From an uncultured Bifidobacterium sp. (GTDB taxonomy: Bacteria > Actinomycetota > Actinomycetes > S36-B12 > UBA5976), in assembly GCA_964655115.1 (NCBI GenBank), contig CAZZKM010000001.1:91708-155707 (forward strand): a stretch of DNA of 64,000 bases, written 5' to 3'. Both the position numbers and the translations under genes were made by a program. Positions 2,817-43,292 of this stretch are shown here, one piece after another. Within the stretch, counting starts at the first letter, position 1; every line of letters starts with the position of its first letter. The notes beneath the pieces are model-generated. The model ran no database searches and was not told the DNA's origin. It saw only the letters and a list, made by a program, of their open reading frames with translations.

Positions 2817-2850
2817 TGTTTAGGCCACAAGAAGAAGAGGGTGGCTAATA

Positions 2851-4233: not shown

Positions 4234-4273
4234 TACTAAAGTAAAGCAAAAAAGAATTTAAGGGGTAATAAAA

Positions 4274-26688: not shown

Positions 26689-28358
<1,670 letters not shown>

Positions 28359-28373
28359 TTAGTAATTAATTTT

Positions 28374-28411
28374 AAGAGGCGCTTAAATATTTAAGCGCCT
28401 CTTATTTTTTT
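28374..28411 (+). terminator. intrinsic terminator of groEL
   Basis: AAGAGGCGCTTAAAT/ATTTAAGCGCCTCTT palindrome followed by ATTTTTTTT. It overlaps the 3' end of the convergent CopC gene. Confidence 0.8.
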
Positions 28412-28887
28412 CGCATTTTTAAGAAAAAAGTAATTGCTACACCAATCGCAGCACCCAAAGATAACCATTGCAGCCAGGAAATGTTGGAATTTGATTCTGG
28501 ATTTGGAGCAATTATTGGCATAGGGGTTTCAACTACTTCTTCTACAGTAATTTGGTCTTGTTCGATAGCCAATTGATAAACCAGTTCACCATCTAGGGGA
28601 TGACCATCACTTGCAACTGTTTTATAAGCAATTGAAAAACTTGTTCCTGTTAAGTCTTGTGGAATTGAAATAAATAAATTGGCTTCTTCAATTCGAATAC
28701 TTGCTTCTACACTTCCTGATTCTGAAGTGATAGAAGCAAAAGTTCCATCCGTAATTACAGGTTCTGAAAAAGATAATTTAACTTCAGTTGGTAAAACTGT
28801 CAGCGTTTGATTTGTATCAGGTTCAACACTTACTACTTCTGTGTGAGCAAAAGAAATAGTGGGGATTAACAAAAAAGTGCTTACCAA
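28402..28887 (-). CDS. CopC-domain copper-binding periplasmic protein with C-terminal TM anchor
   Basis: 161 aa. The mature N-terminus HTEVVSVEPDTNQTLTVLPTEVKLSFSEPV matches the CopC pattern, and a C-terminal TM helix is present. The start is possibly upstream at an AUU codon (28920; see findings). Confidence 0.7.
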   Translation of the reverse strand: MVSTFLLIPTISFAHTEVVSVEPDTNQTLTVLPTEVKLSFSEPVITDGTFASITSESGSVEASIRIEEANLFISIPQDLTGTSFSIAYKTVASDGHPLDGELVYQLAIEQDQITVEEVVETPMPIIAPNPESNSNISWLQWLSLGAAIGVAITFFLKMRKK

Positions 28888-28895
28888 AAAAATTT

Positions 28896-29633
28896 TTAGC
28901 GTGTTCTTAAGATTAAGAATTGAAATCTTCCTTCCATGAAATATGTACGCGAGTACATAATTGGTTCTCCATCGCCAGCGTAGTGTATCTGTTGTAATAA
29001 AAGGAATAAATCATTAGTGGGACGTTGGTCACCCCATCCAATATTTTTATCAATTACTGCATGAACTTCTGCTAAAGCTCTTAAAGGTCGTTGATTAATT
29101 GAATCTAAACTGGAAAAAACACTTCCAGTTTTCATTTCTTCAACTACTTCTGGTGGCACTGAGGCAATATTTATGGTGTCGTATGAGTAAGCAACTGCTT
29201 TGTTATCAGCCAATACTGCTCTTTCTAAATAAAGAACTGAATCGGCATTATCAAGTTGAAGTTTCTCTATTTCTTGTTTGTTGGCAGGCCTGATTACTGC
29301 AGTTTTGTATTCCATTCCTGGGCTATATCCAAGTTCACTGATTGTTTCTGACATGGATCTAAGTTCATTTAGTCCAGTAGGTATGGCTCTTCCAAAATCA
29401 TTTACATAAGTTCCTGAACCATGACGAATATCGACCAGCCCTTGATACTCCAATGTTTTAAGAGCGGTGCGAACTGTGACTCGAGAGACTTTGTAGGTAG
29501 AAGCTAATTCAGATTCACTATGAATTTTTTCTCCCGGATGCCATTCTTTGTTAAGAATTCGTCGACGAATGTCATCGCTAATGCGACGGGTGAGACTAGC
29601 CCTTGCCCCAAACTGCTCTGGAGAGCTACTCAT
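28896..29633 (-). CDS. GntR/HutC-family transcriptional regulator (wHTH + UTRA effector domain)
   Basis: 245 aa with SESELASTYKVSRVTVRTALKTLEYQGLV and a C-terminal UTRA-like domain. Divergent from the mtnA-like operon. Confidence 0.85.
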   Translation of the reverse strand: MSSSPEQFGARASLTRRISDDIRRRILNKEWHPGEKIHSESELASTYKVSRVTVRTALKTLEYQGLVDIRHGSGTYVNDFGRAIPTGLNELRSMSETISELGYSPGMEYKTAVIRPANKQEIEKLQLDNADSVLYLERAVLADNKAVAYSYDTINIASVPPEVVEEMKTGSVFSSLDSINQRPLRALAEVHAVIDKNIGWGDQRPTNDLFLLLQQIHYAGDGEPIMYSRTYFMEGRFQFLILRTR

Positions 29634-29715
29634 ATAGACCCCATTTTCATTTCTATTTGATAACGCTTTTCCTTAGGGAGTTGACAATTTACACGATATC
29701 TATGAGGCTATTCCC

Positions 29716-29736
29716 AATAGTTGTAGGACAACTATT
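29716..29736 (+). promoter_or_regulatory. palindromic operator, copy 1 (candidate GntR/HutC site)
   Basis: AATAGTTGT-AGG-ACAACTATT, a perfect 9+9 inverted repeat 22 nt upstream of the mtnA-like TTG start. A TTGACA box lies at 29681-29686. Confidence 0.6.
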
Positions 29737-29758
29737 GACTAACAAATAAGGATGGAAG

Positions 29759-30799
29759 TTGAGCGCAGATATAAGAGCCATTTCTTGGGTAGATGATGGG
29801 TTGACCCTTATTGACCAAACCAAATTGCCACACGCAGAAATAAATTTAAACATTAATACTGTTGATCAATTGGTTGAAGCAATTCAAAAACTTTCAGTCA
29901 GAGGTGCACCTGCACTTGGAGCAGCTGGTGCTTGGGGAGTAGTTGTCGCGATGCGGCAAGCTCAAAAAGAAAATTGGAACCAAGAAAAATTAAACAAAGA
30001 AATTTTAAGAATCAGAGATGCAAGACCAACTGCAGTTAATTTAGCTTGGGGTGTAGACAAAGTAAGTCATTTTATTTCTGAAGGTGTTGAAAAAGTTTTA
30101 GAGCAAGCAAATCAAATTGCTAAAGAAGATGAAGAGGGCAATCGAAAAATGGGAAAGTTTGGTTCAGATTGGATTGAATCAAAAGTAAAAAATAGACCAA
30201 TTAGAGCTTTGACGCATTGCAACACAGGATCTCTTGCTACTACAACTTGGGGAACTGCATTAGGTGTTATTAGAGAAATGAATTCAAGAGGAATTTTAAA
30301 ACATGTATTTGCAGATGAAACAAGACCATTATTACAAGGTGGAAGATTAACTGCTTGGGAATTAGCACACGAAAATATTGAACATTTTGTAATTGCAGAT
30401 GGCGCTGCTACAAGTATTATTGCTCGCGGTGAAGTTGATGTTGCATTAATAGGTGCCGATCGAGTTGCTGCAAATGGTGACACAGCAAATAAAATCGGAT
30501 CTTTTGCAGTTGCACTTGCTTGTAAATATGCAGGTATTCCGTTTGTAGTAGTAGCACCAGAATCAACTGTTGATGTGTCTACTAAATCTGAAAAAGATAT
30601 TCATATTGAATATCGGGATGAAAACGAAATATTAAGTTTAAATGGACAAAGAATTTCTCCATTGAAATCAAAAGGACTAAATCCAGCTTTTGATGTGACT
30701 CCTGCTGAGTTGATTTCAGCATTAGTTACAGAAAAAGGTGTTTATGAAATCAATAAGGGCGTTACCCCAGAATCGAAGATGGCAGGAATTAACAAGTGA
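29759..30799 (+). CDS. mtnA: eIF-2B/MtnA-family aldose-1-phosphate isomerase (5-methylthioribose-1-P / 5-deoxyribose-1-P isomerase-like)
   Basis: 346 aa, LIDQTKLPHAE...VRGAPALGAAGAWG...HCNTGSLAT...ADETRPLLQGGRLTAWEL...GADRVAANGDTANKIG. TTG start with RBS AAGGA. Confidence 0.8.
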   Translation: MSADIRAISWVDDGLTLIDQTKLPHAEINLNINTVDQLVEAIQKLSVRGAPALGAAGAWGVVVAMRQAQKENWNQEKLNKEILRIRDARPTAVNLAWGVDKVSHFISEGVEKVLEQANQIAKEDEEGNRKMGKFGSDWIESKVKNRPIRALTHCNTGSLATTTWGTALGVIREMNSRGILKHVFADETRPLLQGGRLTAWELAHENIEHFVIADGAATSIIARGEVDVALIGADRVAANGDTANKIGSFAVALACKYAGIPFVVVAPESTVDVSTKSEKDIHIEYRDENEILSLNGQRISPLKSKGLNPAFDVTPAELISALVTEKGVYEINKGVTPESKMAGINK

Positions 30800-32784
30800 C
30801 AATTCCTAAACCACTTCAAGATTTAGTTGAAAGATCAAAATTTTTAGGCAACAATCAAGATTTTGTTGTTTATGGTGGGGGAAATACATCGGCAAAAGGT
30901 GAAATAGTAGATCACTTAAAGAGACCAAAAAATGTTTTGTGGGTCAAAGGTTCAGGCGCAGACATGATGAATGCTGAAGCTGTTGATTACCCTGCACTTT
31001 ATTTGGATGAATTGATTGCTTTAAAGCAATTTGAAAAATTAAGTGATGAGGAAATGACTGACTTAGTGGGGAAAGCTTTAGTTGACCCAAACAGCAGAAG
31101 ACCCTCCATTGAAACCTTGTTGCATGCATTCTTACCTTTTAAGCACATTGATCATGTGCATGCAGATGCAATTTGTGCTTTAACAAATCATAAAGATGGA
31201 AATAAAGCGGTAAAAGAAGCATTGGGTGAAAATTTTGCTTACGTTGATTGGATTCGACCTGGATTTGAACTAAGCAAACAAGCTTCTCAATTAGCAGATT
31301 CAGAAGGAATAATTTTGGCACATCATGGATTAATAGTTTGGTCTGACGATAGTGATGAATGCAAACAAAAGAATACAGATGTGATAAATAAAGTTGAAAA
31401 TTATTTATCGAGTTTAACTAAAAGACCAGAATCTATTTTTAATCACACAACCTATTCAGATGAAGAATTTGAAAATTTATTGTTATTAGTAAGAGGAAAA
31501 TTAAATAAAAAATCTAAAAAAATAATTTCAGTAGATTCAAGATTAAAAGAAACTTCAGATAGAAAAGATATAAAAGAAATAGTTCAAGCTGGAGTATCAA
31601 GTGCTGATCATATGTTGAGAATTAAACCTTGGTCTGCAGTTATAGAAAATGGCAAAAATGATCAATCCATCTTTGAATCTATAGATAAATATTCGAATTC
31701 ATACAAAACATACTTTGAAAATAATAAAAATTTATTACCTCAGGGTTATTCAATGCATGATTCAGATCCTAAAGTTTTGTTAGCTCCAGGAATCGGTGCA
31801 TTGACTGTTGGATTAAGTAAATCTGAATGCAAAATGCTTGCAGATATTTCTTTTCATACTCACAAAACTGCTTCAATGGCAAAAGATGCTTTTGGCAACG
31901 TTGAAGCTTTGCCTGATTCAGAAGTTTTTGGTTTTGACTACTGGCCAATGGAACTTTACAAGTTAGCAAGTAGACCTGCACCAAAGAAATTTGCCGGACA
32001 TGTCTTCATAGTTACGGGTGCTGGAAGCGGTATAGGTCGTGGAATAGCAGTTGAACTTGCCAAGCAAGGTGCAAGTTTAGTTTTAGCAGATCTTGATGCA
32101 AAAGGACTTGCAACTGTAGAAAGTGAAATAAAAAACTACAAAGGATCTAGTCCTCAGATTATTCAAGGGGATCAATCAGATGAAAAAGTTGTTAAGCAAA
32201 CGGTTTCTGAAGCGATAAAAACTTTTGGTGGAATTGATGGAGTGGTATTTAGCGCAGGGATCGCAGTCACAGATAGTTTGCAAGATTTGACAATTGAAAA
32301 ATGGAATAAAGGATTAAGTGTTAACTTAACTAGTTCATTTTTATTAACTAAATATGCGATGAAGGCATTAACCAAACAAAATTCAGGTGGATCACTTGTT
32401 TATATCGCAAGTAAAAATGCATTTTCACCAGGAATTGGTTTTGGAGGATATTCAGTAAGTAAAGCAGGAATGATTCAACTAATGCGCATGGCTGCATTAG
32501 AGGGTGGATCTCATCAAATCAGATCCAATGCAATTAATCCTGATGCAATTTTTGATAACAGCAAATTATGGGAAGGAGGAATCAGAGAGGAAAGAGCTAG
32601 AGCTCATGGCATTAAACCTGAAGAGTTAGAAGATTTTTATGCCAAGAGAAATATTTTAAAATCCCATGTTTCATCAATTGATGTTGCGAATATGACAAGC
32701 TTTTTACTTTCAGATGATTCCGCCAAAACAACAGGCTCGGTCATTGCCGTCGACGGCGGAGTGGCTGCTGCATTTCCGCGCTAA
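30796..32784 (+). CDS. bifunctional class-II aldolase / short-chain dehydrogenase (RhaEW / RhaD-aldolase-ADH family)
   Basis: 662 aa. N-terminal aldolase/adducin-type domain (YGGGNTSAKG, HVHADAI) and C-terminal SDR (VTGAGSGIGRG, YSVSKAG). The GTG start overlaps the mtnA stop (GTGA). Confidence 0.85.
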   Translation: MTIPKPLQDLVERSKFLGNNQDFVVYGGGNTSAKGEIVDHLKRPKNVLWVKGSGADMMNAEAVDYPALYLDELIALKQFEKLSDEEMTDLVGKALVDPNSRRPSIETLLHAFLPFKHIDHVHADAICALTNHKDGNKAVKEALGENFAYVDWIRPGFELSKQASQLADSEGIILAHHGLIVWSDDSDECKQKNTDVINKVENYLSSLTKRPESIFNHTTYSDEEFENLLLLVRGKLNKKSKKIISVDSRLKETSDRKDIKEIVQAGVSSADHMLRIKPWSAVIENGKNDQSIFESIDKYSNSYKTYFENNKNLLPQGYSMHDSDPKVLLAPGIGALTVGLSKSECKMLADISFHTHKTASMAKDAFGNVEALPDSEVFGFDYWPMELYKLASRPAPKKFAGHVFIVTGAGSGIGRGIAVELAKQGASLVLADLDAKGLATVESEIKNYKGSSPQIIQGDQSDEKVVKQTVSEAIKTFGGIDGVVFSAGIAVTDSLQDLTIEKWNKGLSVNLTSSFLLTKYAMKALTKQNSGGSLVYIASKNAFSPGIGFGGYSVSKAGMIQLMRMAALEGGSHQIRSNAINPDAIFDNSKLWEGGIREERARAHGIKPEELEDFYAKRNILKSHVSSIDVANMTSFLLSDDSAKTTGSVIAVDGGVAAAFPR

Positions 32785-32799
32785 ACGGAAATGAAAACA

Positions 32800-32825
32800 A
32801 ACGAATAAATACAAATTTATTCGTT
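32800..32825 (+). promoter_or_regulatory. 11-bp hairpin between the aldolase/SDR and SBP genes
   Basis: AACGAATAAAT-ACAA-ATTTATTCGTT, followed by the RBS AAGGAGAAGG of the SBP gene. Confidence 0.4.
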
Positions 32826-32841
32826 AAAAGAAGGAGAAGGA

Positions 32842-33942
32842 ATGGTAAGAAATAAAAGCAAAGCTTTGGCTGGTATTTCAGTCGTTGCTGCGTTACTTCT
32901 TGCTGCATGTGCACAAAGTGGTAGTGATACCGCTGCACCAGCGGCAGAAGAAGGAACTGTTGAAGAAGCAACTGCAACTAAGCCTGCACCATTTGATGCT
33001 GGCCCAGTAAAAATTGCAATTGTTCAAAACAGTGGTGCTGGAGATTATTTCCAACAATGGACAAACGGTGCTAATCAACAAGCTGAAGCAATCGGATTTG
33101 AAGTTCAAATTTATGATGCTCAAGCAGATAACGCAAAACAAGCAACAGATATGGAAACTGCTATTGCTTCAGGAGTAGCAGGCATCATTGTTGATCACGG
33201 TCAAAAAGACACTATGTGTCCATTGATTAAAAAAGCAACCGATGCAGGAATTCCTGTAGTTGTTTATGACGTAGTTGTAAATGATTGCGCACCAGATGCA
33301 GTTCAAACACAACAAAGTGATGCATCACTTGCACAAGCTGTGTTGGATCAAATGGCTGCAGATCTAGGTAAAGATGCCAAAGTCGGTTATGTAAACGTTT
33401 TGGGTATTGCACCTCTAGATCGTCGTCACGTTGTATGGGAAAAAATTGTTGCTGACAACAATTGGACCCAATCATTCTTCGTTGGAAAATTCACCAACGC
33501 AGTTGCAACAGATAACGCACAATTAGTTGATGCTGCACTTAAAGCTAATCCAGACGTAGTGGGAATTTTTGCTCCATACGATGAATTAACAAAAGGTACA
33601 GTTTCTGCAATTGAACAAAACAATCTACAAGCTTCAATCAGAGCTTATGGAATTGATATTTCAAATGCTGATATTGAAATCATGACCAAAGAAGGAAGTC
33701 CATGGACTGCAACTGCAGGTACTGATCCAAACGCGATTGGTGCAGCAGTAGTTAGAAACATGGCTCTTGAACTTGCTGGTCAACTTGGAACTAAGTCAGT
33801 TGATTTCCCAGGTGTACTTATTACTGCACAATTCCTAAAGGACAATGCAGTTAAGAACATGGTAGATCTACGTGCTGCACTTCCAGAATTGAATCTTGCA
33901 GAAGTAAGTTCTGCAGATTGGATTCCAGCAGTTAAGTTCTAG
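32842..33942 (+). CDS. CUT2 (ribose/RbsB-like) sugar ABC transporter substrate-binding lipoprotein
   Basis: 366 aa with signal peptide and lipobox LLLAAC, and a type-1 periplasmic-binding fold (IAIVQNSGAGDYFQQ..., GIIVDHG). Confidence 0.85.
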   Translation: MVRNKSKALAGISVVAALLLAACAQSGSDTAAPAAEEGTVEEATATKPAPFDAGPVKIAIVQNSGAGDYFQQWTNGANQQAEAIGFEVQIYDAQADNAKQATDMETAIASGVAGIIVDHGQKDTMCPLIKKATDAGIPVVVYDVVVNDCAPDAVQTQQSDASLAQAVLDQMAADLGKDAKVGYVNVLGIAPLDRRHVVWEKIVADNNWTQSFFVGKFTNAVATDNAQLVDAALKANPDVVGIFAPYDELTKGTVSAIEQNNLQASIRAYGIDISNADIEIMTKEGSPWTATAGTDPNAIGAAVVRNMALELAGQLGTKSVDFPGVLITAQFLKDNAVKNMVDLRAALPELNLAEVSSADWIPAVKF

Positions 33943-33970
33943 ATTTAACTAGAAACTAAGGATAGGTGAG

Positions 33971-35479
33971 TTGATGGCAACGGCAGTTGAAGTAAGAGAT
34001 ATCTCAATGTCATTTGGTTCAAACCAAGTGCTAACTGGAGTAGATCTTGCTATCAATAAAGGACAAACCACTGCACTATTAGGTGCAAATGGAGCCGGAA
34101 AGTCAACATTGATAAAAATTTTGTCAGGAGTTTATTCATCCTTTACCGGACAAATAATTATCGATGGACAACTTGTAACCATCGACTCACCTGTCACTGC
34201 AAGAGCATCAGGAATAGAAACAGTTCATCAAAGAATTGATGAAGGTGTAATTCCTGGATTAACGGTAGCTGAAAATCTACTTTTCGAAAGAATAGTTACA
34301 GGAGATATTAAAAAAACTATTTCTCCAAATGAAGTTATTGATATTGCAAGTGAAATAGCAAAGGCATTAGATTTAAATTGGAATAATAATATCCTTAAAA
34401 AAGATGTCTTTGAAATCGGAATTGCTGAACAACAACTTTTGATATTAGCAAGAGCTCTTTCAAGAAAACCAAAATTATTGATTTTAGATGAGCCAACTTC
34501 AGCCCTTTCAGCTTCTGAAAGTCAAAATCTTTTTAAAGTAATTAAAAATTTAGAAAATCAAGGAATTGCAATTCTTTATGTTTCGCATAAATTAAGCGAA
34601 ATTGAACAAATTGCACAAAGATTAGTAGTTATTCGTGATGGAAAAATCAGAAATGAACAGAGCGCTCCATTTAGTTGGGAAGATGCTCTTAAAGAAATGT
34701 TAGGACAAGAGTCTCTAAATAAAAATAATGAATTTGATGTAGTTGAAGGAAAAGGCGTGGTATTAAAATTAAATAACATAAAACTTTTTAAAGAAAGTGA
34801 ACCTATAAATGTTGAATTTAGAAAAGGTGAAGTGACTGGAGTTATTGGCCTTCTTGGAGCTGGGAAAACAGAATTAGCAAAAATCATTTTTGGTGCTGAT
34901 AAACCTTTAACAGGTGAAATGATTCTTGAGGGAAAAAAATATGAACCAAAACATCCTGCCGAAGCTGTTAATAAAGATATATTTTTAGTCCCAGAAGATC
35001 GTGCTGCAGAATCAATGATTTCAGGTTGGAATATTAGTGAGACTTCAACGTTGCCTTTTATGAAAAAGTTTTCGAGTAGAGGTGTAATTAATAAAATAAG
35101 TGAACTTGCAAGAGGTAAAAAACTTGTTGAAGATTTAAATGTAGTAACTACATCTCATATTGCACCTGTTGATTCACTTTCAGGTGGTAATCAACAGAAG
35201 GTGGTTGTGGGCCGCTGGTTGCAAGAGTCACCAAAAATGATGATGCTGGATGAACCTTTTAGAGGTGTAGATATTGGGGCCAGAAGAGATATTTCAAAAA
35301 GAGTGAGAAATCTTGCAGCAAATGATGTAGCTGTTTTGGTTCTTGCTTCTGATGTAGATGAAATATTAGAAGTTGCTGATCGAATTATTGTTTTAGTCGA
35401 AGGAAAAATAGTTCTTGATGTAAGTTCCACAAATACATCAAAAGATAAAATAGTTAACAAAATGTCGGAGGTGGCATAA
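33971..35479 (+). CDS. sugar ABC transporter ATP-binding protein (duplicated ATPase, RbsA-like)
   Basis: 502 aa. Walker A GANGAGKST, LILDEPTSAL, and a second half with LSGGNQQKV and MLDEPFRGVD. Confidence 0.9.
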   Translation: MMATAVEVRDISMSFGSNQVLTGVDLAINKGQTTALLGANGAGKSTLIKILSGVYSSFTGQIIIDGQLVTIDSPVTARASGIETVHQRIDEGVIPGLTVAENLLFERIVTGDIKKTISPNEVIDIASEIAKALDLNWNNNILKKDVFEIGIAEQQLLILARALSRKPKLLILDEPTSALSASESQNLFKVIKNLENQGIAILYVSHKLSEIEQIAQRLVVIRDGKIRNEQSAPFSWEDALKEMLGQESLNKNNEFDVVEGKGVVLKLNNIKLFKESEPINVEFRKGEVTGVIGLLGAGKTELAKIIFGADKPLTGEMILEGKKYEPKHPAEAVNKDIFLVPEDRAAESMISGWNISETSTLPFMKKFSSRGVINKISELARGKKLVEDLNVVTTSHIAPVDSLSGGNQQKVVVGRWLQESPKMMMLDEPFRGVDIGARRDISKRVRNLAANDVAVLVLASDVDEILEVADRIIVLVEGKIVLDVSSTNTSKDKIVNKMSEVA

Positions 35480-36508
35480 ATGTCAGTAGGGATAACCAAA
35501 GAAGGTCAAGGTTTTGACACTAGAGAATTTGTTGTCAAATACGGATTTATCGTCGTAACTGTTTCACTATTTCTGTGGTTTGCCATAACAGAGCCATCAT
35601 TTAGAATGCAATCTACTTTATTTTCCATGCTTAAATTTACCTCTGTTGTAGCCATCACAGGTCTTGGTGTGACTTTAACGATGGTAGTTGGAGGATTAGA
35701 TTTATCTGTTGGCTCAGTAGCTGGATTATCAGTAACACTTTCGGCGATGACGATGGTTATTTATGCTCAAACAGGTGGAGTTGCTTTAATTGTAGTTTTA
35801 TTAGGTGGAGCTTTAGTTGGTTTGTTTAATGCATTTTTAATTGTTGTTTTAAAAATTCCAGATTTATTGGCAACATTAGCAACTATGTTTACGATTATGG
35901 GATTAAAACTTGTTCCGGTTGATGGCCAATCTGTTTCTTCAGGTTTAATTTTAAGAGATGGAAGTGTTGCCCCTGGAAAATTTACTCCCGGATTTTTATT
36001 AATTGACAGAGCCTATATTGGGCCAGTGCCACTTCCTGTTGCAATATTTTTTATTCTTGCATTTGTTGTGTGGTTCTTTTTAACAAGAACTAGGTGGGGC
36101 AGAGTCATGTATGCAATCGGCTCTAATCCAGAAGCTGCAAGACTTGCAGGTGTCAGAGTAAAAAGATATCGAGCATTTGCATATGTCATGTCTGGTGTTT
36201 TTGCATCAATTGGTGGATTAATTTTGTCTTCTCGAATTGGTCAAGGAGATATCAGTGCTGGAAATTCACTTCTTTTAGATGCAGTAGCTGTAGCTTTAGT
36301 TGGAACATCAGTTCTAGGAATTGCAAAGCCAAATGCTTGGGGCACCATTCTTGGTGCAGTACTAATTGGAATCGTGATTACTGGCTTAACTATTAAAGGT
36401 TTTCCATATTATGCACAAGATGTAGTAAAGGGATTAGTGCTTTTAACTGCTCTAATTTTCTCATTTACTTTATCTCGAAAGAAATCAAAATTCGTTCCAG
36501 CGGTGTAA
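35480..36508 (+). CDS. sugar ABC transporter permease (RbsC-like)
   Basis: 342 aa with about 10 TM helices and GGLDLSVGS. Its start abuts the ATPase stop. Confidence 0.85.
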   Translation: MSVGITKEGQGFDTREFVVKYGFIVVTVSLFLWFAITEPSFRMQSTLFSMLKFTSVVAITGLGVTLTMVVGGLDLSVGSVAGLSVTLSAMTMVIYAQTGGVALIVVLLGGALVGLFNAFLIVVLKIPDLLATLATMFTIMGLKLVPVDGQSVSSGLILRDGSVAPGKFTPGFLLIDRAYIGPVPLPVAIFFILAFVVWFFLTRTRWGRVMYAIGSNPEAARLAGVRVKRYRAFAYVMSGVFASIGGLILSSRIGQGDISAGNSLLLDAVAVALVGTSVLGIAKPNAWGTILGAVLIGIVITGLTIKGFPYYAQDVVKGLVLLTALIFSFTLSRKKSKFVPAV

Positions 36509-36518
36509 AGGAAAAAAT

Positions 36519-37745
36519 ATGGCAAATGATTACGAATATTTAAGTAAAGACAATATTTCACAATATTTGAAAAGTAAATCAGTTTTCAATAATTTAATTG
36601 ATGCCGATAATATTGTGGAATTTAACGAAGTCGGAGACGGTAATTTAAATCTAGTTTTTATTCTTAAAGATTCAAAAGGAAAAGGAGTTGTACTTAAGCA
36701 AGCACTTCCTTACGTAAGACTGGTTGGACCAGATTGGCCTATGACGCCAAGTCGAGCACGAATTGAATCTGAAACAACAATAATTCATTCAAAATTTGCT
36801 AAGGATTTAGTTCCAGAAATTTATGATTTTGATGAAGAGCGTTTTATTATCGCTATGGAAGATCTTTCTGATCATCGAGTATGGCGCGGAGCATTAAATG
36901 AAGGTTTGCGTTACGAAGGTGTCGCAAAACCATTAGGTGAGTACGTTGCTAAAACAGCATTTGGCACATCTGTATTCGGTTTGGGCCATGACAAGCATAA
37001 ACAAGAAGTTGCCAGAGCGATTAATCCAGAACTTTGTCTAATAACTGAAGACTTAGTTTTTACTGAACCATATTTTGATAATGGCCGAAACTCGGTCCTA
37101 GAAACAAATAAAAAAGATGCTGAAGATTTAGCAAATGACAAAGACATGGTTAGAGAAATAGGTTTACTCAAATATAAATTTATGACTTCTGCCGAAAGTT
37201 TAATACACGGAGATCTTCATACTGGATCTGTCATGATCAAAGGAAATGACCAAGAACAAGCAATAAGCGTGAAGGCAATTGATTGCGAGTTTGCATTCTA
37301 TGGACCACTTGGATTTGATTTAGGGGCATTAATTGCAAACTACACAATTGCAGCAGCAAGAGCTAGAGCACTTGGAAATGTTGAACAAATGAAATGGCTT
37401 TTATCATTAGCAGAGCAAACCTGGGAAGGTTTTGAATCGACAATTAGAAAGTTATGGCCAACAAGAGTAGATAAAAGAGTATTTAATGATGAAGTTTTTG
37501 AAAACTTGATTAAAACTTGGAAATCAGATGCTCAAGGTTACGCTGGAGCAAAGATGGCTAGAAGAATTGTGGGTTTAGCAAAAACATCAGATATAGAAAC
37601 CCTGGAACCAAATTTAAGAGAAGGCGCTGCACGGGCTGTGTTACAAATGGCAAGACTTTCAACTAAAGAAAGAGATTTAGGCAAATCTTGGAAAAACATT
37701 GCCCAACAATTTGAAACAATAATCGAAAAAACCGTTACGAAGTAA
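36519..37745 (+). CDS. mtnK: MtnK-family 5-methylthioribose (or 5-deoxyribose) 1-kinase
   Basis: 408 aa with EVGDGNLNLVF, the APH-type catalytic loop HGDLHTGS and IDCEFAFYGPLGFDLG. Confidence 0.8.
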   Translation: MANDYEYLSKDNISQYLKSKSVFNNLIDADNIVEFNEVGDGNLNLVFILKDSKGKGVVLKQALPYVRLVGPDWPMTPSRARIESETTIIHSKFAKDLVPEIYDFDEERFIIAMEDLSDHRVWRGALNEGLRYEGVAKPLGEYVAKTAFGTSVFGLGHDKHKQEVARAINPELCLITEDLVFTEPYFDNGRNSVLETNKKDAEDLANDKDMVREIGLLKYKFMTSAESLIHGDLHTGSVMIKGNDQEQAISVKAIDCEFAFYGPLGFDLGALIANYTIAAARARALGNVEQMKWLLSLAEQTWEGFESTIRKLWPTRVDKRVFNDEVFENLIKTWKSDAQGYAGAKMARRIVGLAKTSDIETLEPNLREGAARAVLQMARLSTKERDLGKSWKNIAQQFETIIEKTVTK

Positions 37746-37753
37746 GGAAAAAT

Positions 37754-38113
37754 ATGAAAACTCCTAGAGAAATTGCTGAATCTTATTGGAAAGCAGAATG
37801 CGCAAGGGATACTGAAGCAGTCCTTGCTCACTACCACTTGGATGCAACATTTTGTCCTCCTGGACAAGTTCTAAAAGGACACGAACAAATCAGAACTTTT
37901 TATGATTCATCAGGAGAATCTTTTCCAGGTTTAAAAGTAGATATCGTTCATGAAGTTAGAAATGGTGACGAAAGTTGCATTGAATGGTATGCGACGTTAA
38001 CGGATAAAAAAGGAAATGTTTTTAATATTCCAGGTGTTAACGTTATAAAAATTAGAGATGGAAAATTTGAATCAGTTCATGCCTATTTTGATCCAACTGT
38101 TTTGAATTCTTAA
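37754..38113 (+). CDS. NTF2/SnoaL-like small protein
   Basis: 119 aa with a ketosteroid-isomerase/SnoaL-like pattern (ESYWKAECARDTEAVLAHYHLDATF...IKIRDGKFESVHAYFD). Last gene of the plus-strand operon. Confidence 0.6.
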   Translation: MKTPREIAESYWKAECARDTEAVLAHYHLDATFCPPGQVLKGHEQIRTFYDSSGESFPGLKVDIVHEVRNGDESCIEWYATLTDKKGNVFNIPGVNVIKIRDGKFESVHAYFDPTVLNS

Positions 38114-39213
38114 TTTTCGAATCTTTCAACGCTTTTTCTTAAATTAGACGCATTCTCTAATAAATTTCCTCGGTGTAAAGCGCCACCAATCAATAAAACA
38201 GTGTCATTACCAAAAAATCCAACTAGTTCATCAATTCGATCTAACGTCATTCCTCCACCTGGGCTTGGAAAAATAGTTTTTAAATTACTAAATTCATTTC
38301 TGCAACTACGTGAAATTCGTAAGCATTCTTCTTTTGTAAAACTAAATCTTCCTCCATAATTAGGAAATACTGTTATATCTGCACCACTTAAGCGCATTAA
38401 TTTTGCTAAGACAATTTCATGATTTATTCCATGATTTGGATTCATAAATAATGAACCAAGCATCGAAGGATGACTCATTATAGGTAAATTAATTTCGTCT
38501 GAATCTGCAATACTTCTCATCGCATCAAAACTTGAAACTCCAGGTAAAACCATTAGAGCCCCTGCTCCTAGTTTTCTTGCAGTTGTTGCTTTTTCAAATA
38601 TTTGATGTGAGGGAAGGTTCACACTAGGTGCATAAACTGAATTTCTATTAAATTTTACATTTGCAGTATTAACTGCATCTGAAATTATTTTGACTCTCTC
38701 ATCCCAAGTCGCCCAAGGTTGGTTTGCCAAACTGTGGTCATCTTTTATTAAATCAATTCCTGCTTCAACCATGGTTGCTGCGATAACGGCTAATTCTTTT
38801 GCACCCAATCCCATTGGCTTTAGAGCCGTTGCCAAAATTGGTCTTGATTTTGCATTAAAAAGTTTTCTAACTCCTTGGATTCCGAAACGAGGACCTTTAA
38901 ACTTATTTAAAAAAACTTCATCAAATTGAATATCTGTGATACGGACTTCTGGAAACATTGAAACGTTACCCCAAAGTACATTTAAAAACTGGGGTAGTTC
39001 ATAACCTGTGGTGTCAAGATTAAAAGAAATCTTTATTTCAGATCTTTTTTCAGTTAACTTCTTGCTTGAAACAAAGTGAGCAACTACTTCATTTTGAATC
39101 CAGGCGGGAGCAAGGTCAAAAGGAAACTCTATAGTTTGTTCTACCCTAATTGCTTCAATTATTTCTTTTTCATTACTTGAATTAATTTCGTAAGTTACTT
39201 CGAAATTGCGCAT
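38110..39213 (-). CDS. form-IV RuBisCO-like protein (RLP), short N-terminal domain
   Basis: 367 aa with a large-subunit barrel. By-eye alignment to RuBisCO motifs: GNVSMF (GNVFGF), LKPMGL (KPKLG), IDLIKDDHSL (DFTKDDE), SHPS, PSPGGG, LIGGAL. Confidence 0.8.
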   Translation of the reverse strand: MRNFEVTYEINSSNEKEIIEAIRVEQTIEFPFDLAPAWIQNEVVAHFVSSKKLTEKRSEIKISFNLDTTGYELPQFLNVLWGNVSMFPEVRITDIQFDEVFLNKFKGPRFGIQGVRKLFNAKSRPILATALKPMGLGAKELAVIAATMVEAGIDLIKDDHSLANQPWATWDERVKIISDAVNTANVKFNRNSVYAPSVNLPSHQIFEKATTARKLGAGALMVLPGVSSFDAMRSIADSDEINLPIMSHPSMLGSLFMNPNHGINHEIVLAKLMRLSGADITVFPNYGGRFSFTKEECLRISRSCRNEFSNLKTIFPSPGGGMTLDRIDELVGFFGNDTVLLIGGALHRGNLLENASNLRKSVERFEN

Positions 39214-39218
39214 TGCCT

Positions 39219-40241
39219 TTATAGCGCCTCTGCTTTAGCAGTGCTATGAACGTCAATTTCTCTAGAAATTTCTAAATCTTTTTCAGATATGTCTAATTGT
39301 TTTTCAATTAGTCCTTCTATTGTTGAGATTAATCGTTTTGCGCCTAGATCGTATTTATTTAACAAATATTTCAAAGAAGCTCCATGGGCGTAAGTATCAT
39401 TAAGTCCAATTCGAACCAATTTTTTGCCAATTCCTTCTTCTGCCATAATTTCTGAAACCGCGGTTCCTAATCCACCAACAATTGTGTGGTTTTCCATAGT
39501 TATTACGCCATGTTTAGCAGTTTTTATTGCTTCAATAATTTGTGGATCTGTTAAAGGTTTAATTGTAGAAACGTGTAAATGTTGAATAGTTACACCTTTA
39601 TTTTTTAATGCAGGTATGGCTCGTAAAGCTTCTTCGGTTGAAATTCCAGAAGAAATTACTGTTACATCAAAACCATGACTTAAAATTCTTGCTTTATTAA
39701 ATTCCATAACCTCATTTCGAGGAAATATTCTTGAAATCTCTCCGCGAAGCATACGAATGTAAACAGGTCCGTCAATTTTATGTGCTACATCTAAAACGGA
39801 TTCAACTTCTGTAGCATCACCTGTTTCTAGAATTGTCATATTTGGGATTCCACGCATAACATTTATGTCATCAATTGCTTGATGAGTAACGCCACCTGGT
39901 GTAGTGATTCCTGGTAAAAATCCCACCATTCTCACAGGTAGATTTGGATAAGCAACTGACATTTGTAATTGATCAAGAGGTCTTCTGTAAATAAAAACAG
40001 CAAAAGTGTGAATCCAAGGCTGGAATCCCTCACGGGCTAGACCTCCAGCAAAGCCCAACATATTTTGCTCACCTAATCCAAAAGAAAAAAATCTGTCTGG
40101 GTAGGTATCTCTAAATTTTCCAACTTCGCATGAGCTAGTTAAGTCGGCAGATAAGACTACGACTTCTGGTTTGTATTTGCTCCACTTAACAAAATTTTCA
40201 ACGTGAGGTCTTTTTACAATTTCATAAGCCATTATTTCCAC
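39219..40241 (-). CDS. transketolase, C-terminal (pyrimidine-binding + C-domain) subunit
   Basis: 340 aa with FSFGLGEQNMLGFAGGLAREG, HQAIDDINVMRGIPN and NHTIVGGLG. Confidence 0.85.
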   Translation of the reverse strand: MEIMAYEIVKRPHVENFVKWSKYKPEVVVLSADLTSSCEVGKFRDTYPDRFFSFGLGEQNMLGFAGGLAREGFQPWIHTFAVFIYRRPLDQLQMSVAYPNLPVRMVGFLPGITTPGGVTHQAIDDINVMRGIPNMTILETGDATEVESVLDVAHKIDGPVYIRMLRGEISRIFPRNEVMEFNKARILSHGFDVTVISSGISTEEALRAIPALKNKGVTIQHLHVSTIKPLTDPQIIEAIKTAKHGVITMENHTIVGGLGTAVSEIMAEEGIGKKLVRIGLNDTYAHGASLKYLLNKYDLGAKRLISTIEGLIEKQLDISEKDLEISREIDVHSTAKAEAL

Positions 40242-41152
40242 CTACTTAAAAATTGCATATATTTATTTTTTTCAAAAACATTTGCAAATCTCACATAATG
40301 AAGTGCATCAGGTCTGTCTTTTAAGATTTCAATACCTTTTGTTGGATCTGTGTAACCTAAAATAACTTTTGGTTTATCACCAATATTTAATCCAGAATTA
40401 AGAATTTGCTTTATATCATTTCCATCAATTTCATCAACATCCCAACCAAAACTTCTAATACGATCTGCTAAGGGTTCAATTTTCATAACTTTATCCATTG
40501 GTCCATCTACTTGATTTTTATTTACGTCAACCAAAATTCTTAAATTATTTAGTTCATGAAACGAAATAGCACCGAGGGCTTCCCAAGTTTGACCTTCTTG
40601 GAATTCTCCATCTGACATAAAAATCCAAGTTTTCCCAGATTCACCTTTTAGCTTTCTGGCTAATGCAACACCACCGGCTTGTGAAATTGCTTGAGCAAGA
40701 GAACCGGTTGTTGTTTCAAAACCTGGAGAGTGTTCTGCGCCAATCATTTCCACTGTAGAGCCATCTTTATTAAATTTCTCTAAAGATTTTTCTGTTAATC
40801 TTTTGCATTCGATTAGCGCAGCATAAACAACCAATGCATAATGTGCAGGACTAATAAATAAGCGATCTAATTCTGGTTTTTTTTCTCCATGAAACTCTGC
40901 TCCAGTTATGTAGTCTTTAAAATTTTTGCTTGGAACGTTTACAAATTCTCTTGGGTCTAATGGTTCTTTTAAAGGAGATAAGTTGACTAATCGGGAGTAC
41001 AAACTTGCCAACATTTCAGCAGCTGAGCAAGCTTGGCTTAGATAGCCCCCGTTGTTTATTACTGTATGTTCCAGGACTCGATGTCTGATCCCATGGGCCA
41101 TAGAGGCAATTTTTGATACTTCTGTCTCTGCGACAGTTTCGGAAGTAGTCAT
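40232..41152 (-). CDS. transketolase, N-terminal (ThDP-binding) subunit
   Basis: 306 aa with GGYLSQACSAAEMLASLY, GSLAQAISQAGG and the SDGEFQEGQTWEA ThDP motif. 10-nt overlap with the C-subunit gene. Confidence 0.85.
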   Translation of the reverse strand: MTTSETVAETEVSKIASMAHGIRHRVLEHTVINNGGYLSQACSAAEMLASLYSRLVNLSPLKEPLDPREFVNVPSKNFKDYITGAEFHGEKKPELDRLFISPAHYALVVYAALIECKRLTEKSLEKFNKDGSTVEMIGAEHSPGFETTTGSLAQAISQAGGVALARKLKGESGKTWIFMSDGEFQEGQTWEALGAISFHELNNLRILVDVNKNQVDGPMDKVMKIEPLADRIRSFGWDVDEIDGNDIKQILNSGLNIGDKPKVILGYTDPTKGIEILKDRPDALHYVRFANVFEKNKYMQFLSRWK

Positions 41153-41172
41153 TGCCTCAGAATAGCAAAGAG

Positions 41173-41193
41173 AATAGTTGTCCTACAAGTTTT
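41173..41193 (-). promoter_or_regulatory. operator copy 2 upstream of the transketolase/RLP operon
   Basis: The minus strand reads AAAACTTGTAGGACAACTATT. This is 19/21 identical to copy 1, with an identical 16-mer TTGTAGGACAACTATT, and lies 20 nt upstream of the ATG. Confidence 0.55.
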
Positions 41194-41207
41194 ATTTTTA
41201 AGGGTTT

Positions 41208-41246
41208 AAGGGCTCTTGGGGATTATTCAAGAGCCCTTATTTTTTT
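41208..41246 (+). terminator. 11-bp hairpin with plus-strand U-tract between whiB3 and the transketolase operon
   Basis: AAGGGCTCTTG-N9-CAAGAGCCCTT followed by ATTTTTTTT. Confidence 0.45.
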
Positions 41247-41272
41247 GGAGGGTTATTAGGGATAAGACTTAA

Positions 41273-41572
41273 TTAGCCAGCTACTGGCATTACTTCTTTA
41301 ACTGGTGCATAGAGTGCTTCGCGATCATCTTCACTCATCGCACCCCACACACCGTATGGTTCTCTAACTTCCAATGCATGTGCAGCACATTGCTTTAACA
41401 CTGGACAAGTTGCACAGATAGATTTCGCTAAAGCAATTCTTTGCTCGCGAGCAGGTCCACGCTCACCTTCGGGGTGAAAGAAGATTTCTGGATCTTCACC
41501 ACGGCAAGCACCCTTTAATTGCCAATCCCAAAGATCGGCATTTGGTCCAGGAAGTCTGGTTATGTCGGCCAT
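41273..41572 (-). CDS. whiB3: WhiB-family Fe-S transcription factor (WhiB3/WhiD orthologue)
   Basis: 99 aa. LPGPNADLWDWQLKGACRG...CATCPVLKQCAAHALEVREPYGVWGAMSE matches, by recall, the M. tuberculosis WhiB3 N-terminus and its four Cys. Confidence 0.9.
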   Translation of the reverse strand: MADITRLPGPNADLWDWQLKGACRGEDPEIFFHPEGERGPAREQRIALAKSICATCPVLKQCAAHALEVREPYGVWGAMSEDDREALYAPVKEVMPVAG

Positions 41573-41648
41573 TTTGAGATAAATCCTTTGTTAGAGCTTG
41601 TTTTATCTAAATATACAAAATTGTTCATAACTTAGTCAATCGCCCCGG

Positions 41649-42722
41649 ATGACTAATTTTGTGAAGTCGCTCTCACTTAGGCCTCGAATAGCCAAAGTTG
41701 TTCACTTGGTGAACAATATGCTCATGGGTTTAAATCCTGAGGAAGAAAACGTCATCACCCTAGGGCTCACGGTAGCCGTGGTGGCAAGACGTGTGGGGGT
41801 AGCTCCAGCGACCTTAAGAACCTGGGAACGCCGGTATGGCCTATGTCCCACGGATAGATCTCAAGGTGGACACCGCCGATATTGCATCACCGATATTGCT
41901 CGTCTAGAAATAATGCGAAAGTTAGTTCTTTCAGGAATGCCAGCAGGAGAAGCTGCCAAAGTTGCTTTAAATACCAAAGTTGAAAATATTTCAAATATCT
42001 CTCCAGTTGATCCAAACTCATTAAGTAGCAAAATAGAAAATTTAGTTAAAACTCTTGATCATTCAGAAAAATTTGGCCATCCAGGTGGAGGTCAAGTTTT
42101 ATCGATGGAAGGTGCTTCAAGTGCGGCTAGAGGACTTGCAAAAGCTGCTCACTCATTAGATAACCAGGCATGTAATCAAATAATTGCAGCAAGTATTAAC
42201 TCTCGAGGAGTTATTTGGACTTGGGAAAATTTAATTTCAAAAGTTTTAATCGCCATTGGTGCTAAATGGGAACAAACTGGTGATGGTATTGAAGCAGAAC
42301 ATGTTTTAAGTGAAGCAATTATTGGTCAAATGAGACTTAGAGCAGATCAATTAATTGCTCCTGTAAATATTCGACCTGTATTAATGGCATCTGCTCCAGA
42401 TGAATTACATACCATTCCACAATATGTAACTGCTGCAGCTTTAGCAGAAAGAAGAATTAGTTCCAAAGTATTGGGAGCAAGAGTTCCTTACACATCATTA
42501 ATAAATTCAGTAAAAAGACTTGCCCCAGCTGCAGTTTTAATCTGGGCTCAAATTCCTGTGAAAAATATTGATCCCGAATTAGAGAACTTAAGTAATTTAA
42601 GACCAAGTCCACTCATGTTGGTGGCAGGTCCTGGATGGCCTATGCAACTACCAAGTAATTTTAAAAGAAGTAGTGATTTAACGAGCACAATTACTGCAAT
42701 TACAAATTCTGTAGGTTTATAA
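41649..42722 (+). CDS. MerR-family regulator with CarH/LitR-like B12-binding C-terminal module
   Basis: 357 aa. MerR HTH LTVAVVARRVGVAPATLRTWERRYGL, W-x9-EH motif (KWEQTGDGIEAEH), and the ExHxx(G/P) B12-ligand motif ELHTIP. The start is probably an internal ATG at 41718 or 41724. Confidence 0.65.
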   Translation: MTNFVKSLSLRPRIAKVVHLVNNMLMGLNPEEENVITLGLTVAVVARRVGVAPATLRTWERRYGLCPTDRSQGGHRRYCITDIARLEIMRKLVLSGMPAGEAAKVALNTKVENISNISPVDPNSLSSKIENLVKTLDHSEKFGHPGGGQVLSMEGASSAARGLAKAAHSLDNQACNQIIAASINSRGVIWTWENLISKVLIAIGAKWEQTGDGIEAEHVLSEAIIGQMRLRADQLIAPVNIRPVLMASAPDELHTIPQYVTAAALAERRISSKVLGARVPYTSLINSVKRLAPAAVLIWAQIPVKNIDPELENLSNLRPSPLMLVAGPGWPMQLPSNFKRSSDLTSTITAITNSVGL

Positions 42723-42758
42723 AGAAACTTAAACATTCCATGAATCGTCTTATGATTC

Positions 42759-43292
42759 ATGAACATATTAGTCATAGAAGAAAACTTATCCAGAAGAAAG
42801 ATTATCCACAGAAAACTTCAGTTAACAAAAATACAATCTCAAATTATGTTAGTTCGAAATTTTAGACAAGCCCTTATATATTTAAGAAATTCTAAGATAG
42901 ATTTAGTTTTAATAAATACACAAATGTTCAATATTCTTTCAGAAATACAAAAAAAAGTTTTAAAAAACAGAAATGTAATTCTTTTAAGTATAAATAAAGA
43001 GATTTCTAAATCAAAAAATTCAACTCTATTTATTGAAGCAGAAGTTTCAGAGTATAAAAATCTTTTAATTAAAAATATGGCTAAAAAGCCTAAGATTAAA
43101 GTATTAAGTAAAAGAGAAAAAGAAATACTATTTTTAATAAGCCATGGCTTAAACAATAAAAAAATAGCCAAGAACTTAAAAATTCAAGATGCCACGATTA
43201 AGACTCATCTTCGAAGAATCAGGATTAAACTTCGCACAGAAAATAGGGCTCATTCTGTGGCCATGGCCCTAAGAAAAGGCGCCATCTCTTGA
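42759..43292 (+). CDS. LuxR-family HTH protein with degenerate receiver-like N-domain
   Basis: 177 aa. C-terminal LSKREKEILFLISHGLNNKKIAKNLKIQDATIKTHLRRIRIKL. N-terminal ILVIEEN...DLVLIN is receiver-like but atypical. The gene is very AT-rich by eye. Confidence 0.7.
   Translation: MNILVIEENLSRRKIIHRKLQLTKIQSQIMLVRNFRQALIYLRNSKIDLVLINTQMFNILSEIQKKVLKNRNVILLSINKEISKSKNSTLFIEAEVSEYKNLLIKNMAKKPKIKVLSKREKEILFLISHGLNNKKIAKNLKIQDATIKTHLRRIRIKLRTENRAHSVAMALRKGAIS

Follow-up and report, generated by a model that had tools for sequence, protein, structure and literature searches.

A short RuBisCO-like protein encoded with a divergent split transketolase beside the mtnA and mtnK genes of an actinobacterium

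The stretch of DNA analysed here (the window: 64,000 nucleotides, or 64 kb, of contig CAZZKM010000001.1 from an uncultured actinobacterium) has a GC content of 35%, encodes WhiB and GuaB3 and is 97-100% identical to a freshwater metagenome contig (L085), with related metagenome-assembled genomes among acTH1/Nanopelagicales. Exploring its minus strand, we found that rlp, a gene for a form IV RuBisCO-like protein (RLP; RuBisCO is the carboxylase/oxygenase of ribulose-1,5-bisphosphate), probably encodes a member of an already described group of isomerases, and that its company, a transketolase-like enzyme that uses thiamine diphosphate (ThDP), is what sets the locus apart. The three genes of this group and the two operator-like sites that connect it with mtnA are as follows.

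38110..39213, minus strand: rlp, form IV RuBisCO-like protein (DeepYkr/RLP1-like), 367 aa, open reading frame from ATG to stop
39219..40241, minus strand: tktC, pyrimidine-binding plus C-terminal subunit of a transketolase-like enzyme, 340 aa, Pfam Transket_pyr and Transketolase_C
40232..41152, minus strand: tktN, ThDP-binding subunit of a divergent split transketolase-like enzyme, 306 aa, Pfam Transketolase_N
41175..41191, minus strand: operator-like palindrome AACTTGTAGGACAACTA, 17 nt, two mismatches to the mtnA copy, 23 nt upstream of the tktN start
29718..29734, plus strand: operator-like perfect 7-3-7 palindrome TAGTTGT-AGG-ACAACTA, 25 nt upstream of the mtnA start

The overlap between tktN and tktC measures 10 nt, and a gap of 5 nt leads from tktC to rlp. 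A preliminary description of this DNA had placed rlp last in a transketolase operon that shares its regulation with MtnA and MtnK, and this was borne out by the tight packing, by the shared operator-like palindrome and by genomes L058, L063, L089 and L104, in which mtnA, an aldolase/short-chain dehydrogenase (SDR) fusion gene, tktN, tktC and rlp form a single operon. The window holds 3 matches to the palindrome vs 0.25 expected by chance, the 3 counting the reverse-strand reading of the mtnA copy, and in related genomes an 11-nt core of the palindrome recurs at exactly two places, before mtnA and before tktN. The predicted co-regulation of the tkt-rlp operon with the mtnA operon is well supported by these features, and a GntR/HutC-family protein encoded divergently from mtnA is a candidate repressor for both operators, a pairing of regulator and operator that we infer.

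The catalytic domain of the RuBisCO large subunit (PF00016) spans residues 111-347 of the RLP (Pfam; E 5.3e-26). Its best solved relative by sequence is 3QFW (phmmer vs PDB, residues 7-358, E 1.6e-63), which reached 218 bits, followed by 4NAS (167), 2OEK (141) and 1YKW (121), and 3QFW was also the best fold match of an AlphaFold2 model computed from an alignment of 12 sequences (pLDDT 89.5; Foldseek TM 0.88-0.92). The protein has the two-domain fold of the RuBisCO large subunit with a shortened N-terminal domain, which is the norm of its clade (~365-380 aa); the shortening, put at about 40 residues beforehand, was measured as an offset of ~43, the equivalent of K175 being K132. The PDB title of 3QFW is "Rubisco-like protein from Rhodopseudomonas palustris", and we take the entry to be RLP1 because RLP2 of R. 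palustris is a separate entry, 2QYG. RLP1 belongs to the DeepYkr clade and is a 5-methylthioribulose-1-phosphate (MTRu-1P) 1,3-isomerase in vivo and in vitro (PMC5893883), and its R. rubrum orthologue is Rru_A1998 (PMC4958253). Rru_A1998 is a proven isomerase and Rru_A2000, a cupin, a proven sulfurylase of 1-methylthio-xylulose-5-phosphate (MTXu-5P) (PMC4958253, PMC5893883).

Active-site residues of the RLP were read through a phmmer alignment to MtnW of G. kaustophilus (2OEK), in which K98 is the enolase base at the position of RuBisCO N123. In this alignment K147 of 2OEK corresponds to K132 of the RLP, K173/D175/E176 to K157/D159/H160, and K98 to N83. The assignments proposed beforehand were confirmed: K175, K201, D203 and H294 are kept, K177 is replaced by Met, E204 by His and R295 by Pro, and the motifs LKPMGL, IKDDH, SHPS, FPNYGGRF, PSPGGG and IGGAL are all present in the translation, as is the GNV motif of the N123 region (WGNVS, N123 being N83). 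The loop carrying H327 and K334 had been called replaced; FPNYGGRF is indeed there, but loop 6 is remodelled rather than simply replaced, with the nearly invariant R289 at the K334 position and V282 at the H327 position (K334->R, H327->V) in a gapless register set by the spinach loop-6 motif. S379 is changed to Gly, a further carboxylase residue lost, and the full carboxylase set (K175/K177/K201/D203/E204/H294/R295/H327/K334/S379) is not present. A bona fide RuBisCO of forms I-III was ruled out by the replacement of K177, E204, R295 and H327 and by the curated type III and type II RuBisCO cut-offs, which were missed at least 3-fold (type III NCBIfam model, 135 bits vs a cut-off of 497), in agreement with the earlier statement that the protein is not a carboxylase. 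The presence of this RLP explains the annotation "RuBisCO large chain" in these genomes despite no CO2 fixation.

Among 142 relatives compared together with 3QFW, position 175 is Lys in 141, 204 is His in 122, 295 is Pro in 138, the K334 position is Arg in 136 and 123 is Asn in 134, so that the signature N123/K175/KDDH/HP/FPNxGGRF/IGG is common to 3QFW and to 120-141 of the 142. The residues that the preliminary description had singled out as altered are not peculiar to this protein but the rule in a large radiation of short RLPs, 3QFW among them; the RLP is less unusual than was held, and the unusual item is its transketolase partner. The suggestion that the protein acts on a phosphorylated ketose as an enolase or isomerase is supported, and narrowed to an isomerase by the RLP1 signature, the structural match and the absence of the MtnW base.

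Identity to 3QFW is modest (BLASTP, 36.8%, vs 32.3% and 28.5% to two MtnW proteins), and independent evidence for the clade was therefore sought. An exhaustive search of 1.84 billion cluster representatives returned 274 clusters at E<1e-30, and each of the top 150 outscores what MtnW would reach. Eight of the 10 longest relatives scanned were RLP-Cupin_2 fusions, 38-48% identical to the RLP, which is the same pairing as that of Rru_A1998 with the Rru_A2000 cupin, and orthologues 52-58% identical to the RLP adjoin a separate cupin that is a clear orthologue of Rru_A2000 (PDB 3JZV, E 2.4e-44). In a neighbour-joining tree the MtnW anchors fall outside the large short-RLP radiation, in which the actinobacterial clade lies together with 3QFW and the cupin fusions; in this tree, which has no RuBisCO outgroup and a star-like backbone, the actinobacterial clade joins MtnW in 13 of 100 bootstraps and the MtnW clade has 100%. 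The RLP of the window resembles the DeepYkr proteins (Rru_A1998; RLP1/3QFW) in its short two-domain fold, in the active-site signature including FPNYGGRF and in its linkage to mtnA. It differs from them in its separate subclade at 37% identity, in a loop of 6 residues that follows the HP motif and is absent from the 3QFW subclade, and in its surroundings: no cupin in the 64 kb, co-transcription with a split transketolase, and supply by MtnK and an ATP-binding cassette (ABC) importer, not by MtnP. Together, the data indicate that the RLP is, as far as such comparison can place it, a non-carboxylating member of the DeepYkr/RLP1 kind in a subclade of its own, and its predicted function is that of an MTRu-1P (or 5-deoxyribulose-1-phosphate) 1,3-isomerase.

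Among the relatives collected, two RLPs (P0127, residues 1-280; P0134, residues 1-215) and an RLP-cupin fusion (P0129, in its linker) carry long low-complexity extensions; those of P0127 and P0134 contain 3-5 copies of an (E/D)DMF(A/L)(A/C)SP(A/S)xLKK(M/L)-like motif and look eukaryote-like. One contig with a tktN-tktC-rlp trio also has a second, distant RLP-like segment (L111:11342-11857, plus strand, 31% identity), which adjoins a GntR gene.

The best PDB match of TktC is the split transketolase 6YAJ. Both subunits score under every curated cut-off for transketolase or 1-deoxyxylulose-5-phosphate synthase (DXS), the best transketolase model giving 190.8 vs 488. The state of the cofactor- and substrate-binding residues was as follows.

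ThDP/Mg motif (GEQN, SDGE...N conserved): kept
Cofactor Glu: kept
His77 (human): kept
His258 (human): probably kept (register off by one residue)
Yeast His481 position (human Gln428): His, TktC H120
Human His37 / yeast His30: Tyr
Human His110 / yeast His103: missing
Human His416 / yeast His469: Leu (Leu109)
Human Asp424 / yeast Asp477: Gly (Gly116)

Like the canonical and split transketolases (C. hydrogenoformans 6YAK/6YAJ), the enzyme, divided into N and C subunits, retains the ThDP/Mg motif, the cofactor Glu and residues that match His77 and, probably, His258 of the human protein, and it differs from them at yeast His30, His103, His469 and Asp477, in its sub-cut-off scores and in the near-constant RLP downstream. 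In TktN, aligned with 6YAK and human transketolase, Tyr37 stands for His37, His110 is absent and His77 is kept; in TktC, H461 and D469 of the E. coli enzyme are changed to Leu and Gly with H473 and the cofactor Glu kept, a pattern unchanged in 46 homologues. The motifs GGY, SPAHYA and MIGAEHSPGFE are invariant across TktN homologues, and the substrate-residue changes hold without exception in 39-46 homologues as well as in a genome of 63% GC. In the yeast enzyme His103 contacts the C1-OH of the donor, His30 contacts the carbonyl/C3 region of the substrate, His469 binds the phosphate and Asp477 reads the configuration of the sugar.

A fused transketolase of this subtype, of 683 aa and with no RLP downstream, is encoded at L147:5992-8043 (plus strand), and its neighbours at 2792-4066 and 4059-5507 (both minus strand) are a Cys_Met_Meta_PP (MetY/MetB-like) gene and a PALP-family gene. 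This neighbourhood is a weak hint at a link of the transketolase subtype with sulfur amino acids.

To see what accompanies the RLP elsewhere, 80 genome loci were typed by the gene just upstream of RLP, each locus spanning 21 kb, to which statements on flank content are limited. That gene belongs to a split transketolase in 48 of the 80 loci and to a pair of cupin and CoA_binding_2 protein in 7; neither is present in 21 (Planktophila type, mtnA-aldolase/SDR-rlp), the flank was too short to type in 4, and transketolase and cupin occur together in none. The cupin is the Rru_A2000 orthologue described above. In the 64-kb window no cupin was found by tblastn with six cupin domains and two N-terminal extension segments, so that a cupin methylsulfurylase, present beside 7 orthologues and fused to many relatives, neither adjoins nor is fused to this RLP. 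In L009, the RLP of which is sister to the subclade of the window, the order is GuaB3-MerR-WhiB-[cupin, CoA-binding]-RLP-aldolase/SDR-MtnA-CopC-GroEL; the neighbours in the window match it on both sides, with tktN-tktC filling the slot of the cupin and the CoA-binding protein. Judged from this gene order, the change from cupin to tktN-tktC looks like a non-orthologous replacement in situ.

A profile of the TktN subtype extended this to metagenomes, where RLP lies directly after tktC in 47 of 53 loci with enough downstream sequence, at 36-72% GC. The three RLP clusters nearest to the actinobacterial ones from outside that group are transketolase-linked too, and one 5.2-Mb contig of 63% GC has the bare tktN-tktC-rlp trio. 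mtnA is linked to RLP in most of the 80 loci, and in the window both mtnA and mtnK are. The module is thus widespread and is prominent in freshwater acI/Nanopelagicales actinobacteria, which depend on reduced sulfur. In the literature we found no account linking an RLP with a transketolase, the main primary DeepYkr papers lying outside the sources covered and PMC5893883 citing a thesis about the family, so that a prior mention is possible.

In the cupin-type loci (L059:9488-9934, minus strand, and L009, L011, L012, L017, L019 and L060) the cupin is co-transcribed with the CoA_binding_2 protein (PF13380), which might supply or handle a thiol co-substrate in actinobacteria without glutathione. 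The Planktophila-type operon at L046:4398-11098 (e.g. IMCC26103) runs polar-amino-acid ABC transporter-mtnA-aldolase/SDR-rlp with no mtnK nearby, and the 3' end of its rlp overlaps an open reading frame for a FUSC-like exporter.

The genes that would supply the RLP with its substrate lie on the plus strand of the window in the order mtnA, aldolase/SDR, ABC importer, mtnK and SnoaL-like, and are listed here with the regulator gene.

28896..29633, minus strand: GntR/HutC-family regulator, divergent from mtnA
29759..30799, plus strand: mtnA, S-methyl-5-thioribose-1-phosphate isomerase (TIGR00512, 414 bits vs a cut-off of 279)
30796..32784, plus strand: class II aldolase/short-chain dehydrogenase fusion, 662 aa (NCBIfam bifunctional aldolase/SDR models, 544-571 bits)
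32842..36508, plus strand: ribose-type ABC importer (substrate-binding protein 32842-33942, ATPase 33971-35479, permease 35480-36508)
36519..37745, plus strand: mtnK, S-methyl-5-thioribose kinase (TIGR01767, 397.8 bits vs a cut-off of 275)
37754..38113, plus strand: SnoaL/NTF2-like protein of 119 aa, encoded at the end of the mtnA...mtnK operon, stop overlapping that of rlp

mtnA overlaps the aldolase/SDR gene by 4 nt, and the GntR/HutC gene is co-located with mtnA in many loci. The fusion is predicted to be the branch of a dihydroxyacetone phosphate (DHAP) shunt, in which MTRu-1P would be cleaved to DHAP and methylthioacetaldehyde before a redox step. As in the DHAP shunt (MtnK or MtnP, MtnA, Ald2), MtnK, MtnA and a class II aldolase stand under one operator; the aldolase of the window differs in its fusion to an SDR domain (RhaD-aldolase/alcohol dehydrogenase type), and the operon also includes the ABC importer and the SnoaL-like gene. 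In R. rubrum and R. palustris the aldolase branch and the RLP branch coexist, as they do here (PMC5893883). As to an Ald2-like or an MtnB-like nature of the aldolase domain, a PDB search gave just 3M4R, an uncharacterised class II aldolase matching the N-terminal part, and generic SDRs. In loci with the ABC importer (13 from genomes and several from metagenomes) mtnK is always followed by the SnoaL/NTF2-like gene, which is placed like RbsD in ribose operons, so that a role as a sugar anomerase or epimerase is conceivable; a PDB search with its product returned weak matches only.

We propose, with a probability of about 0.6, that the RLP, as one of the DeepYkr/RLP1 kind, isomerises a methylthio-sugar phosphate and that the transketolase-like enzyme then acts on the product. 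Imported methylthioribose or 5-deoxyribose would enter by the ABC importer and be phosphorylated by MtnK, and MtnA would isomerise the product to the ribulose-1-phosphate, at which point the pathway would fork. In one branch the aldolase/SDR fusion would yield DHAP and a C2 aldehyde, to be oxidised or reduced by the SDR domain. In the other the RLP would turn MTRu-1P into MTXu-5P (and the ribulose epimer), and probably 5-deoxyribulose-1-phosphate into 1-deoxyxylulose-5-phosphate (DXP) as well. A ThDP-dependent cleavage suggests itself because the RLP product is xylulose-5-phosphate, a transketolase donor, with SCH3 for the 1-OH, and an enzyme that has lost the equivalent of His103, which binds that hydroxyl, is a natural candidate for a 1-methylthio donor; the loss of Asp477 might let it take both the xylulose and the ribulose epimers. 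The enzyme would cleave the RLP product to glyceraldehyde-3-phosphate and ThDP-bound 2-methylthio-1-hydroxyethylidene, from which methanethiolate would leave to give acetyl-ThDP and hence acetate or acetyl phosphate, and the methanethiol could feed methionine via O-acetylhomoserine sulfhydrylase, as in R. rubrum. Elimination of a heteroatom from the beta position of a ThDP-bound C2 unit has precedents in phosphoketolase (water) and in sulfoacetaldehyde acetyltransferase, Xsc (sulfite).

The RLP-transketolase module is probably a new downstream variant of the methylthioadenosine (MTA)-isoprenoid shunt, and with the RLP the MTRu-1P 1,3-isomerase family reaches the bacterial lineage that is most abundant in freshwater. 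That the divergent split transketolase is a new ThDP lyase, converting MTXu-5P to glyceraldehyde-3-phosphate, methanethiol and an acetyl unit, we put forward tentatively, as a step that may well prove wrong. If it is such a lyase, it would define a third route, independent of cupin and thiol, that recovers sulfur and all carbon from methylthioribose; consumption of MTXu-5P would release methanethiol in a new way and feed glycolysis from a by-product of S-adenosylmethionine (SAM) that other microbes excrete. This would matter for sulfur acquisition by genome-streamlined plankton and would add a reaction type to the transketolase family.

Several points weigh against this proposal. The RLP subclade is distinct, at 37% identity to the nearest characterised enzyme and in a neighbour-joining tree poorly resolved without a RuBisCO outgroup, and both the subclade and the transketolase chemistry are read from sequence. 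The aldolase branch makes the branch through RLP and transketolase partly redundant in a streamlined genome. With the phosphate-binding His and the Asp that reads stereochemistry both lost, the substrate of the transketolase may not be an analogue of xylulose-5-phosphate. Finally, the 21 of 80 loci of Planktophila type have no partner nearby, so that the RLP product may not always need one, which would fit the conversion of 5-deoxyribulose-1-phosphate to DXP.

The last point leads to an alternative that we regard as unlikely, though the strongest of those considered, in which the physiological substrate is mainly 5-deoxyribulose-1-phosphate, from imported 5-deoxyribose or from the 5'-deoxyadenosine formed as a by-product of radical-SAM enzymes. 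The RLP would make DXP directly, and the transketolase/DXS-like enzyme would cleave DXP to glyceraldehyde-3-phosphate and hydroxyethyl-ThDP, with release of acetaldehyde, or balance the DXP pool. Such a pathway needs no desulfurylation, in accord with the Planktophila-type loci, where RLP, mtnA and aldolase/SDR occur without cupin or transketolase; TktC matches the DXS model TIGR00204 (147 bits), and the loss of the residue that binds the donor C1-OH is compatible with a 1-deoxy donor no less than with a 1-methylthio one. Sets of MtnK, MtnA and aldolase are also known to handle both methylthioribose and 5-deoxyribose (PMC10986504, PMC6079011). However, the cupin with which the transketolase alternates is an orthologue of the methylsulfurylase, needed for a methylthio substrate only, and MtnK and MtnA score as methylthio-specific equivalogs. 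The methylthio and 5-deoxy substrates are not mutually exclusive.

It is improbable that the RLP and the transketolase act on another sugar phosphate derived from the ribose-type importer, perhaps with the transketolase first, and that their link with mtnA and mtnK is incidental. The tkt-RLP trio does occur without mtn genes in some genomes (L083 and several other loci), RLPs have been recruited elsewhere, e.g. for apiose (OiaC/OiaX), and the substrate pocket of the transketolase is strongly remodelled. Yet the flanks of the 48 transketolase-type loci hold aldolase/SDR in 29 and mtnA in 27, some of them in a single operon, a shared operator joins both operons of the window, and the alternation with the cupin suggests that MTXu-5P is the intermediate. 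MTRu-1P, being a 1-phospho-ketose, cannot, we infer, be a transketolase donor, so that the order RLP-then-transketolase is the sensible one; the OiaX/OiaC type of RLP was itself ruled out (NF042437, 86.4 bits vs a cut-off of 700).

Most improbable is that the RLP is an MtnW-like 2,3-diketo-5-methylthiopentyl-1-phosphate enolase of Bacillus-type salvage with the aldolase domain acting as MtnB: its best NCBIfam match is an MtnW model (NF007095), it keeps the longer loop after HP(A/S)xxG that is found in MtnW and absent from 3QFW, and MtnB and the N-terminal domain of the fusion are members of one class II aldolase superfamily, but MtnW was ruled out by scores far under both cut-offs (NF007095, 216.7 vs 409 bits; TIGR03332, 159.3 vs 513.6), by Asn83 in place of the catalytic Lys, by KDDH instead of KDDE and by a FPNYGGRF loop identical to that of RLP1, the orthologues pair with the MTXu-5P cupin, and the cupin-domain queries hit no cupin in the window, MtnC, MtnX and MtnD not having been searched with models of their own. 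The similarity to MtnW/YkrW (B. subtilis; 2OEK) thus lies in the fold, in 28-32% identity, in K175, the carbamylatable K201, D203, H294 and R295->P, and in the company of MtnK and MtnA, and the difference in the absence of Lys at N123, in His at 204, in another loop 6 and in the missed cut-offs.

Returning to the transcripts of the window, no riboswitch was detected at 28000-43000 (Rfam, E<=0.1); one sub-threshold match to the L20 leader at the 3' end of groEL (28303-28413, plus strand; 37 bits vs a gathering score of 58.7) is unrelated to these genes and probably due to chance. Upstream of the tktN operator lies one further element.

41207..41239, strand not assigned: GC-rich hairpin, 14-bp, between whiB and the tkt operon

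The probable role of the hairpin is to terminate transcription of whiB and to insulate the tkt-rlp operon. The genes on either side are encoded by the minus strand, but its T-run is on the plus strand, and the terminator may be independent of a U-tract or bidirectional.

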